Part shown: positions 40,090 to 43,000 of the stretch, one piece after another | Position numbering within the stretch: the first letter of the stretch is position 1 | Layout of the letters: every line of letters begins with the position of its first letter | Source: an uncultured Planctomycetia bacterium | GTDB taxonomy: Bacteria > Omnitrophota > Gorgyraeia > Gorgyraeales > Gorgyraeaceae | Assembly: GCA_964652265.1 (NCBI GenBank) | Contig: CAZZAL010000003.1 | Coordinates: 1,438-65,437, forward strand | DNA: 64,000 bases | Reading direction: 5' to 3' | The notes under the pieces: generated by a model | Databases searched by the model: none | Told to the model about the DNA's origin: nothing | The model's input: the letters and a program-made list of their open reading frames with translations, nothing else | Translations under genes and position numbers: made by a program

Positions 40090-43000
40090 TTAGCGTTTTA
40101 GTTCATACCATCTGCCAGGGCCAAGAGGACCGCTGGCAATCAAAATCTCTCGCTCCAGAAGCTGCTTTAAATCCCTGGCTGCCGTGGGCACTGATATTTT
40201 AGAAAACTGCGCGTACTCTTTACGCGTAATCTTCTTTGCCGTTTTCAGATGCTCAAGCAATTGCTTTTGTCTGCTATTTAATCCTGTCAAAGGAAGTTTA
40301 GGCTCCAGAGGTAAAGGAGGAGGTAATCTTAATTCAGGGCTTGGTCTGGCCTCAGGAGACGGTTCTGGCTTGAGGTCTGGCTTTAGCTCATAAACCGGCC
40401 TTGTACCAGGTAATGGTTCTGGCTTAGGCGCAGTCGAACCTGAGTCAGTCTTATGCTCCTTGATGTCTGGCTTTAAAATCAATGGTTTTATCTTTGGCTT
40501 GTCTTTTTTTGACTCGACATCTGGTGAAGGCAAAACAATAGTCTTTGTCTTTTCAGGCTGCGCCTTTGTAAGAGGCTTGAGTTTTTTAACAGGAAGAGGT
40601 CTTGCCTCAGGATAAAGCTTTCTTGCGGGTATAGAGACTTCTACTGGTTTACCCATTAAAAACCCTGCAACAATAATATAGACACATGGTATTACGAAAA
40701 GCGTCAGGATAGTAGAAAGTGCCAATCCTCCCATAACTGTTATGGCCATCGGGCTCTGCAGCTCTGAGCCCTCTGCTATCCCTAATGCCAGAGGCGTAAG
40801 GCCCAATATAGTTGTCATGGTAGTCATGAATATAGGACGGAGCCTTGTCTTGCCAGACTCTATAACAGCAGTTACAAGATCTATTCCTTTTGCGCGGAGT
40901 TTATTTATAGTATCTATTAGGATAATACCATTATTAACAACGATACCGCCGAGTATTATAACACCCAGTATCACTACAACACTTATAGGTGTCCTGGTCA
41001 GATACAGCGCACAGAGCACACCCATAAGAGACAAAGGCACTGTAAACATAATAATAAAAGGTTGCCATAGCGACTCAAACTGCGCTGCCATTATCATATA
41101 TACAAGAAGGATCGATAGTAATAACGCGAACCTCAAGGAATCAAAAGACTCTTTCATCTGCTGGCTTTCTCCTGAGAGCGCTATGGAAATATCCTTTTCA
41201 GAATCACCGATGTTCCCTGCCAGGCCAATCTCTTCTGCTTCAACCTTTTTTATCAATACACCTATATCCGCTATAACCTTATCCAAGGCCCTGTCTGATA
41301 TATTTGCCGTCACAAAGACTGCCCGCTGCTGGTCAATCCTTTTTATCTCAGTCGGGCCAAGACCTTGTGTTATGTATGCCACCTCTGAAAGCGGTACCTC
41401 TATATCAAGAGGTGAATGGATAAGGACATTCCTGAGTTGCGAAAGCCGTGAACGAGCTTCCTCCCTCAACCTAACCCTTATATCTATCTCTCTTCCTTCT
41501 TCCTTAAACTTAGTGGCTACCACACCTTTTATTGCAGTATGCGCAGCCTGAGAGATCACAGCTGTTGAAAGATTATAAAGTGCGGCCTTGTCTTTCATGA
41601 TATTGACCTTTGTCTCAGGGGAAGGCTGTGTAAGACTCGTGCGTATCCCGTAAATCCCATCTATATCCTGGAGCCCGCCCTTAACATACATGGAAATCTC
41701 TTCTATCCTTTCAAGGTCTTTTCCTTTTACCTCGATTACGATCGGCGCTGAGCCCTGAAGCGCTGTCTTAAAGACACTTTCCTGTAAGATATATTCGATC
41801 ATCGCTCCTTCCAGATCAAGTCTGCTCAGTTTGCCTTTTAACCCTTCTATCACCTTCGAGGTTGAATCCCACCGCCTGCCTTTCCTCAAGGCCACCATGA
41901 TCTGGGCCTGGTGAGAACCCATTGTCTCGAGTCCTTGGGCATAGTCTTTTTTCCTGCTGGAACCTATACTTATAGCCACACCCTCGACCTCTTTTGTATC
42001 GAAAAGTACCTGTTCTATTTTTTTTGAAACCTTATCTGTAACCTCTAATCTTGCGCCGCTAGACATATTGATCTTCATAATAAATTCGCGCTGATCTACT
42101 TTTGGCATAAATTCCTTGTCTATCATTAAAAACAGGCTCATGCTCAGAATAAATACCGCTAAAAGACCAATCAGGAATGTCCACCTGCGTTTTAATACCC
42201 TTGGCAAGATACTGGAATAAAAAGACTCAATGTCAGATATGCCCCTGCCTTTATTAGCCGCCAAATTAGGGACTAGCGAAACTCCTCCGGATCCACCGGC
42301 CTTTATGGCTGCCAGGCGAGGGATCAAAGAAAGTGCCACTATCAGCGAAGCTAATAGCGAAAATGTCACAGTAAAGGCAAGCTCTTTAAATAACTGGCCG
42401 GCTACTCCGACAACAAATATCATCGGCAAAAACACCGCTACGGTAGTAAGCGTAGAAGAAAAAATAGCGCTTGCCACATCACTTGCGCCTGATTTTGAAG
42501 CCTCTTTTATATCCTTTTTCTTACGCATCTGAGTATATATATTCTCGATGACAACTATCGCGTTATCCACTAACATACCTATGCCAAGTGCAAGTCCTCC
42601 CAAAGAAAGCATATTCAGGGTAATCCCATTGAAATACATAAGGCTGAACGCCACCATAATAGATATAGGCATCGAGAAGGCCACTATCAATGCAGCCTTT
42701 ATATTCCTCAAGAATATAAAAAGCACTAAAAACGCGAGCACGCCTCCCAGGATCGCTGCATCCATGACCCCGCGAATTGATTTTTTGATAAATACTGACT
42801 GGTCATAAATCACCTTGATATTCATACCGGAAGGCAAGTCTCTTTCTATCTCTTTCAATCGCTTATGCACTTTCTGGGCAAGCCGCGTAGTATTAGAACC
42901 CGCCTGCTTCTGCACTGATATTGATATGTTCTCGCTTCCGTTATAACGCGAGACGCTTGTCTTCTCTTGGAATGTGTCCTTTATCTCAGCTATATCTTTT

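Follow-up and report, generated by a model that had tools for sequence, protein, structure and literature searches.

Resistance-nodulation-division (RND) pumps are among the best-studied bacterial transporters and, to our knowledge, their regulation passes in all described cases through separate soluble or two-component regulators. Control of transcription from the inner membrane is known from other systems. ToxR, CadC and TcpP have a cytoplasmic winged helix which is covalently anchored in the inner membrane and acts on DNA from there, and in the "trigger" transporters PtsG-Mlc, MalK-MalT and BglF-BglG the amount or the state of the transporter is relayed to transcription at the membrane. The RND pump MdtABC of Escherichia coli works as an MdtB2C heterotrimer. 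MdtABC has been described as unusual in having two inner-membrane components (PMC7015380). Here we describe an RND permease, RND1, encoded in a 64-kb stretch of contig CAZZAL010000003.1 (about 42% GC; "the window" below), which continues beyond the pump into a proline-rich linker and ends in a winged helix-turn-helix (wHTH) domain. The fusion brings together two known kinds, the membrane-tethered winged helix and the paired-RND pump. No description of RND-wHTH fusions or of Omnitrophota RND pumps was found in the searchable literature.

A Winged Helix at the End of an RND Pump

The body of RND1 is a 12-helix transporter of the AcrB type, as a first-pass annotation of the window had proposed. 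It matched the Pfam family ACR_tran (PF00873) over amino acids (aa) 5-1051 and over profile positions 3-1020 of 1021 (797 bits, E 2.4e-239). Its full-length matches in the PDB were MdtB, CmeB, MexB, AcrB and CusA, the best solved relative being E. coli MdtB (9lyq, E 1e-91). The last transmembrane helix (TM12) ends ...LFVIPCVYIIVAGFLMGK at aa 1058, and 185 more residues follow in the same frame. The span 40090-40644 holds the final 184 codons and the stop codon, and the coordinates and translation first given for this extension of 184-185 aa proved accurate. By analogy with AcrB, from which we infer the topology of RND1, the tail would be cytoplasmic. Read by eye rather than by systematic alignment, TM4 of both RND1 and its neighboring paralog RND2 shows VDNAIV, that is D-N and not D-D; the proton-relay residues of AcrB are D407, D408 and K940.

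The tail begins with a low-complexity linker (Table 1). Its 122 residues include 29 P, 19 K, 16 L and 11 E (P 24%, K 16%, E 9%), and the Pro/Lys/Glu-rich spacer noticed at first thus stands by composition. In an AlphaFold2 (AF2) model of the whole 186-aa tail, the first 120 residues were without secondary structure, with a per-residue confidence (pLDDT) of 52-66 as against 89-97 in the wHTH. The linkers of orthologs measure 19-298 aa (median 62) and contain P 22%, E 15% and K 13%; only this composition is kept, the sequence is not. Of the two arms envisaged by the annotation, the flexible one is consistent with these data, and the rigid one finds no support in the absence of secondary structure, the low pLDDT and the variable length. 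The spacer had also been called TonB-like, and this likeness is compositional only. No TonB_C or TonB_2 Pfam match was found in RND1, and true TonB homology of the linker was rejected. The TonB spacer is likewise low-complexity and rich in Pro, Glu and Lys, but it is periplasmic and lies between an N-terminal TM anchor and TonB_C, whereas the RND1 linker comes after TM12, on what would be the cytoplasmic side.

The final 63 aa of RND1 are LNSRQKQLLEHLKTAKKITRKEYAQFSKISVPTAARDLKQLLEREILIASGPLGPGRWYELKR. In an isolated 67-aa tail, Pfam detected HTH_DeoR (PF08220) with 23.5 bits against a cutoff of 21 (E 4.6e-5), and more weakly HTH_24, HTH_11 and MarR; within full-length RND1 the HTH_DeoR match reaches 17.7 bits, below the cutoff. 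PF08220 is also precomputed on most RND1 orthologs. AF2, run on a 20-sequence alignment, gave a model with pLDDT 90.5, in which three helices (7-19, 24-30 and 35-47) are followed by a beta hairpin (51-54 and 62-65), that is an H-H-H-beta-beta topology. Foldseek comparison of this model with the PDB returned wHTHs of MarR, ArsR and Fic2 (8cil) at query-normalized TM-scores (TMq) of 0.8-0.84, and the match of highest identity was the C-terminal wHTH of Coxiella Fic2 (8cil, 30-32%, TMq about 0.8). The Pfam match and the predicted structure thus confirm the winged helix that had been read from the letters, and the final 63 aa have its canonical fold.

The domain is strongly basic, with a net charge of about +8 (orthologue median +6). 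When the orthologs were compared and the AF2 model was used for placement, the invariant residues fell into three groups: helix 2 holds TRK..Y, helix 3 holds S.PTA.RDL and the wing holds GP...GR.Y. It is with these three elements that wHTH domains usually contact DNA. When 1.84 billion representative proteins were searched with a profile of the tail, 110 matches at E<=1e-10 were obtained. All those above about 75 bits were RND tails or their fragments, which form their own tight cluster with a distinctive invariant Pro/Gly-rich wing, GPLGPGRWYEL. The next tier was made of C-terminal wHTHs of Fic and AlbA_2-HATPase_c_4 proteins, and the early Fic-family/DeoR-like assignment is therefore borne out by the nearest non-RND relatives. 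RND1 is not a DeoR-family regulator despite its DeoR-like HTH, since Pfam detects no DeoRC (PF00455) and no domain follows the wHTH. An RND1 ortholog (P0107) is nevertheless entitled a DeoR-family regulator in one NCBI record. By tblastn, no further copies of the wHTH were found in the 64-kb window. The paralog RND2 ends about 30 aa past TM12, without a tail, as the annotation had noted.

Conservation of the Fusion in Omnitrophota

The fusion is genuine and conserved across Omnitrophota. We compared RND1 with its 120 closest homologs (121 sequences including the query, 50-91% identical, 1140-1270 aa) and found an in-frame tail in 116 of these 121. Among the five sequences without it, four are truncated entries and only P0087 (1105 aa) is perhaps a complete tail-less ortholog. 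A genomic scan with one genome per GTDB species gave 75 loci, and at 75/75 of them an RND gene ends in the wHTH. All 75 are Omnitrophota by record title, or metagenome-assembled genomes that their submitters labeled Planctomycetia or Patescibacteria. The same in-frame architecture is present in more than 110 independent assemblies (NCBI, JGI, ENA, Logan). The median identity of orthologs to the query is 67% in the wHTH vs. 63% in the pump body, and the linker is hypervariable; judged from sequence conservation, the wHTH is under purifying selection. Public records title these proteins "efflux RND transporter permease subunit", that is plain RND permeases, and the fused domain is thus invisible in annotation.

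The survey bears directly on a possible artefact, namely a missed stop, a frameshift or a chimeric assembly near 40640, the first two of which the annotation had raised against itself. Apart from P0087, which may lack the tail, no support for such an artefact was found. The presence of the same in-frame fusion in all these assemblies and 75 species representatives, with a wHTH under apparent purifying selection, makes its probability vanishingly small, and frameshift, missed stop and chimera are untenable because the fusion is conserved phylum-wide.

In L003, the RND1 linker is interrupted by one in-frame TAA (within 7890-8000), so that the pump is 1168 aa long and the rest of the linker forms, with the wHTH, an open reading frame (ORF) of its own of 114 aa. 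The cause could be an error of sequencing, decay into a pseudogene or a natural split. Also, on a 1.35-kb contig (P0015), the tail occurs together with a 4Fe-4S sequence. Many database entries are short "standalone" linker-plus-wHTH ORFs; these were discarded as independent proteins, nearly all being contig-end fragments or internal ORF calls of RND tails.

Such observations bring up the possibility that the tail is freed by proteolysis of the linker, or translated separately, and then acts as a small soluble DeoR-like regulator, the fusion serving only to ensure that it is made together with the pump. A long linker without predicted secondary structure and with low pLDDT may be accessible to proteases, and the split ORF of L003 and the short entries point the same way. 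However, the short entries are explained as above, and L003 is the only one of 78 loci in which a stop codon severs the tail (L053 is broken within the pump body instead). In addition, the linker of the window's RND1 contains no Met and no internal promoter was detected there, and as the linker sequence is not conserved there is no conserved cleavage motif. We consider a released regulator highly improbable.

A Repeated Element at the Operon Promoter

In the layout of the window, which we call type A, the genes follow each other in the order outer-membrane factor (OEP), membrane-fusion protein (MFP), RND1, RND2 and a 389-aa coiled-coil membrane protein. In the type B layout, OEP and three to four unknown ORFs are followed by RND1, RND2 and MFP. 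The sigma-70-type promoter located before OEP (Table 1) is the best promoter-like match in 39900-47300 and is nearly invariant across type A loci.

By aligning the regions upstream of the OEP gene, we found a 9-bp element, AC[CT][GA]TATCA. Its tandem copies, usually two with an 11-bp period, lie upstream of the promoter. At least two sites occur within -300..+200 of the OEP start in 31/31 non-redundant loci, at a density 12 times that in the rest of the loci. The four type B OEP promoters examined have the motif directly upstream of the -35 box (4/4), which brings the total to 35/35 loci. The promoter flanked by these repeats is conserved phylum-wide (OEP promoters of L001-L081 and L202-L205). 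These 35 include lineages whose RND1 is only about 50-55% identical, as well as loci without a nearby ROK regulator gene. An apparent class of type B loci without motif was dismissed, as the flanks first retrieved were too short to reach the OEP promoters; the motif was present in all four promoters then fetched.

Two further copies of the element lie within the OEP coding sequence. At the downstream intragenic site, 15 of the 18 loci that encode T-V-S use exactly ACC GTA TCA, although the background shares of these codons are 0.19, 0.30 and 0.23. From codon usage, the downstream site is held by a constraint at the DNA level, inside the coding region of the OEP signal peptide. The sites are variously arranged, as direct repeats at 9-12 bp, as inverted pairs or singly, and this variety suggests independent monomer sites.

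The motif is also found at other genes. An exact-match scan of metagenomes for the tandem motif gave mostly chance or tandem-repeat matches in unrelated high-GC DNA, and about 15 low-GC matches were informative. Among the matches listed, a tandem ACCGTATCA precedes the gene of an 82-aa membrane protein with two TM in six contigs (L097, L098, L120, L122, L131 and L153) and parB in two contigs (L142 and L170), all of low GC and without confirmed taxonomy; also among these matches, the tandem motif lies before a Zn-ribbon gene in low-GC metagenome contigs. As it occurs at these other genes, the motif defines a small regulon. The Zn-ribbon gene encodes a conserved basic protein of about 108 aa, rich in Arg, Lys and Tyr (consensus MRCKICQKEF.PSKY..QQVC....CQK.RQ..NERAWR..NPDYFK...REYMR.YMR.YR). 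Where present, it is always beside ACCGTATCA sites; neither the 64-kb window nor any type A locus contains it.

Possible Roles of the Tethered Domain

The annotation had suggested that the tail could couple efflux to transcription, and had pointed to the promoter region 47045-47145; the operator-like element found there makes this hypothesis testable. In the reading that we favor, RND1 and RND2 would form a mixed trimer, as inferred from MdtB2C, and each pump would consequently show one to three tails. The tethered wHTH would bind DNA at the inner face of the membrane, its target being the 9-bp elements that flank the sigma-70 promoter of the TonB_C-OEP gene. Transcription of the efflux system would thereby come under feedback from the number of pumps in the membrane, and possibly from their state, making RND1 a one-polypeptide, membrane-anchored autoregulator. 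We infer DNA binding by the tail, the identity of its binding site and the heterotrimer, and we put forward the binding of the motif by the tethered wHTH, with autoregulation of its own operon, as a tentative reading, possible though short of probable.

The tail is an attractive candidate for the binder of the element. No other HTH-type domain consistently accompanies the operon in the loci that we examined; the tail has no dimerization module, it would be displayed in several copies on a trimer, and its helix 3 is as invariant as the motif. Its basic charge, its invariant residues in the elements that usually contact DNA, and the chromatin association of the CbFic2 wHTH, its closest solved relative by identity (PMC10628234), also speak for this reading, as does the presence of the repeats at the OEP promoter in 35/35 loci. 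Candidate monomer sites would fit such a domain, without dimerization module and presented multivalently by the trimer. As the recognition helix and the motif are both invariant, their co-variation is uninformative, but the pairing of an invariant helix with an invariant 9-bp element at the operon promoter makes the hypothesis directly testable.

Several observations weigh against autoregulation by the tail. The distance from the sites to the -35 box is variable. Co-occurrence of tail and motif arises partly by construction, since the loci were fetched via the wHTH, RND1 or OEP. As the motif is not exclusive to the efflux operon, a dedicated global regulator is equally possible, and in type B loci the Zn-ribbon gene, beside the sites, stands where a regulator gene classically does. 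In type B, the RND1-RND2-MFP genes have a different control region, with GEMM-I-like riboswitch variants and another leader, and no motif nearby; the type B tail could therefore at most control the separate OEP promoter. Finally, DNA binding by the related CbFic2 is not solely HTH-dependent (PMC10628234).

In a wider form of the proposal, a sequence-specific tail would read motif arrays at its own promoter and at a few other loci (parB, the small membrane protein and the Zn-ribbon gene), and the pump would be a transcription factor that tethers chromosomal sites to the envelope. We regard this form as rather unlikely.

The occurrence of the motif at other genes can also be taken to mean that the tail and the element are unrelated. 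The wHTH could bind DNA non-specifically or elsewhere, as a membrane-nucleoid tether or pump localizer in very small cells, while the motif would be bound by the Zn-ribbon protein or by an unlinked regulator of the OmpR/PhoB type. OmpR/PhoB regulators classically bind direct repeats of 11-bp period, and BaeR and CpxR control mdtABC in E. coli. The Zn-ribbon gene adjoins the sites in L015, L158, L159, L188 and L202-L205, and the tail domain is strongly basic. Moreover, the HTH of CbFic2 mediates chromatin localization and DNA-induced dimerization, for which arbitrary dsDNA was used (PMC10628234), and a related wHTH thus works on such DNA. However, a non-specific binder has no obvious need for the phylum-wide near-invariance of residues in helix 3 and the wing, the Zn-ribbon gene is missing from the window and from all type A loci, and none of the annotated loci contains a response-regulator gene. 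This explanation is, in our opinion, unlikely.

Winged helices act as protein-binding modules in many systems. The RND1 wHTH might accordingly bind no nucleic acid and recruit a cytoplasmic partner (a regulator, kinase, chaperone or cytoskeletal factor), the protein-recruitment role that the annotation had named beside DNA binding, or it might sequester one, as PtsG does with Mlc. The invariant Pro/Gly-rich wing could be a docking surface, the long flexible tether suits "fly-casting" for partners, and the C-terminal wHTHs of Fic and AlbA_2-HATPase_c_4 proteins form a class whose function is mostly untested. On the other hand, the domain has a high positive charge and is conserved above all in the three elements by which wHTH domains usually contact DNA. 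No gene for a conserved candidate partner is common to all loci, and the linkage of ROK to the operon is inconsistent. Such a module seems to us distinctly unlikely.

If membrane-anchored autoregulation, or the wider tethering role, is true, it represents a new, phylum-wide regulatory architecture in which a transporter is its own regulator or DNA anchor, and an undescribed coupling of efflux to gene control, possibly to chromosome positioning, within one polypeptide of an uncultured phylum. Also, the fusion puts the function of the widespread and poorly understood Fic/AlbA_2-type C-terminal wHTH within experimental reach. Even without any binding of DNA or of the motif by the tail, the element and the Zn-ribbon protein would still mark an unknown regulon of Omnitrophota.

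Operon Organization and Neighboring Genes

RND2 lies directly downstream of RND1 at every locus that reaches far enough, often with a 4-nt overlap, and the two genes are often coupled in translation. Its best solved match is also MdtB (9lyq), and no MdtC structure was among the PDB matches of either paralog. Since both match MdtB best, the RND1/RND2 duplication is probably independent.

The first gene of the operon encodes an outer-membrane factor with a TonB_C domain (31.4 bits, aa 60-127) before its OEP repeats. This TonB_C-OEP architecture is found in more than 100 Omnitrophota homologs, which NCBI and JGI often name "TonB family protein", and it is present in type A and type B layouts alike. 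The 389-aa coiled-coil protein is syntenic after RND2 in type A, and a recognizable MFP holds that place in type B; it is possibly an accessory protein or a second, divergent adaptor. Pfam searches returned nothing significant for the Zn-ribbon protein, the 389-aa protein or the intervening ORFs of type B.

The ROK gene upstream of OEP was considered as a regulator of the operon or binder of the repeats, and this is unlikely. The gene is missing near L080, an SBP gene and another ORF separate it from OEP in L079, and in L081 it lies downstream of the pump genes, beside an SBP gene. It travels with SBP, MFS and glycosidase genes, and the sites are direct repeats. A perfect 7-bp hairpin (47124..47143, minus strand, AAGGCAT-AACCTG-ATGCCTT) lies immediately ahead of the operator-like repeats and overlaps the stop codon of ROK; it may separate the sugar cluster from the efflux operon as a terminator or an insulator. 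Beyond the sugar cluster lie a PilZ protein gene (60247..60603) and a giant ORF with a CheR domain (60710..64000, cut by the end of the window). On the other side, the efflux genes are followed by genes resembling those of type II secretion systems or type IV pili (T2SS_F, three N_methyl pseudopilins and T2SSJ; 33592..35691 and 21335..21778, both on the minus strand), which are syntenic with them in many type A loci. All 49 chosen genes (49/49, ORFs of at least 90 aa) are on the minus strand and the GC skew is negative over 1..64000, which fits a single replichore with strong gene-strand bias.

In type B loci, riboswitches or their variants precede the unknown ORFs that lead into RND1-RND2-MFP. 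Rfam detected c-di-GMP-I or c-di-GMP-I-GGC riboswitches in L033 (2463-2766, tandem) and L015 (3478-3575, and 455-569 on the minus strand). Similar sequences below the Rfam threshold occur in L003, L022, L026, L028, L034, L042, L046, L064, L071 and L073, before an ORF of 6xx aa (841 aa in L042 and L046). These sequences hint at control of the type B pump operon by c-di-GMP. Also, some type B loci have a conserved leader directly upstream of RND1, which consists of GATAGGGRCTGGCA, 8-14 nt, AAGGGGGTAAGCC, a hairpin and a terminator-like CCCCTTTTTT. None of the Rfam families matched it, even at E<=1, and the leader is possibly a new cis-regulatory RNA.

Table 1. Features of the RND1 operon and its surroundings in the 64-kb window, with related features of other loci (L numbers). 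Positions are those of the window unless a locus is named.
Feature	Position	Strand	Basis or remarks
RND1, full fusion gene (RND permease, linker, wHTH, stop codon)	40090..43821	-	ATG start, 1243 aa
RND permease core, 12 TM, AcrB/MdtB type, aa 1-1058	40648..43821	-	Pfam ACR_tran and PDB relatives
Low-complexity linker, aa 1059-1180 (122 aa)	40282..40647	-	Composition; AF2
C-terminal winged helix (DeoR-like/Fic-C-terminal type), aa 1181-1243 (63 aa)	40093..40281	-	Pfam, AF2, Foldseek
RND2, tail-less paralog, 1048 aa, 37% identical to RND1	36896..40042	-	Pfam, synteny
Membrane-fusion (periplasmic adaptor) protein	43892..45133	-	Pfam HlyD_D23 (E 8.6e-28), HlyD_3; synteny conserved
Outer-membrane factor (OEP) with N-terminal TonB_C, first gene of the operon	45182..47023	-	Pfam OEP E 4e-47
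389-aa membrane-anchored protein, N-terminal TM and coiled coil	35695..36864	-	Only weak coiled-coil Pfam matches
Sigma-70-type promoter: TTGACA, 17 nt spacer, TG-extended TATACT (TGnTATACT)	47045..47073	-	11/12 match
Operator-like repeats upstream of -35	47086..47121	-	Alignment of OEP upstream regions
Repeat ACAGTATCA, part of palindrome TGATACAGTATCA	47117-47109	-	
Repeat ACCGTATCA	47104-47096	-	Only exact copy in the window
Repeat GCCGTATCA	47094-47086	-	
Two intragenic copies at 5' end of OEP coding sequence	46949..47013	-	
Copy AGCGTATCA	47013-47005	-	OEP codons 4-6
Copy ACTGTATCA	46957-46949	-	OEP codons 23-25
ROK regulator gene	47135..48373		Upstream of OEP, at end of sugar-utilization cluster
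Sugar-utilization cluster upstream of ROK	48418..60214	-	SBP_bac_1/8, MFS_2, ABC permease, GH2-like, GH72-like, 941-aa TPR protein
Zn-ribbon gene	L203 2436-2759, L204 2026-2352, L205 2294-2731, L202 ~2549-2842	-	
Zn-ribbon gene, further loci	L015 656-988 (-), L158 6446-6769 (+), L159, L188		
Conserved type B leader	L032 ~1530-1690, L015 ~6320-6483, L010 ~850-1013, L038 ~380-537, L033 ~6445-6605, L036 ~5955-6113, L057 ~4800-4963		

Comparison with Known Systems

CbFic2 and the AlbA_2-HATPase_c_4 ("RecG-like") proteins have the same wHTH subtype, likewise at the extreme C-terminus of a protein which is not a regulator, and the signature S.(P)TA.RDL...L......G.GR...Y is common to their wHTHs and to the RND tail. 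However, the wHTH of Fic2 is joined to a soluble enzyme by a helix, whereas that of RND1 hangs from an integral-membrane transporter on a long linker.

MmpL3, the mycobacterial lipid exporter of the RND superfamily, is likewise extended at its C-terminus, beyond the transport core, by a long cytoplasmic and largely disordered tail. The MmpL3 tail is not known to have a wHTH, is implicated in localization and phosphoregulation, and has no sequence relationship to the RND1 tail. MdtABC resembles the present operon in its two adjacent, co-transcribed RND paralogs and its single upstream adaptor gene; neither MdtB nor MdtC is known to have a cytoplasmic DNA-binding tail.

ToxR-like proteins are built on another plan, with an N-terminal wHTH of the OmpR type (Trans_reg_C), a single TM and a periplasmic sensor, whereas RND1 has a C-terminal DeoR/Fic-like wHTH on a 12-TM proton-driven pump and no Trans_reg_C Pfam match. 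Thus, RND1 is not a member of the ToxR/CadC kind, though by analogy it may work like them. In the trigger transporters, the regulator is a separate polypeptide that is sequestered; a ROK gene, of the Mlc family, does adjoin the operon of the window, but it belongs to the sugar genes and is not consistently linked. In RND1, by contrast, the DNA-binding-type domain lies within the transporter chain itself.

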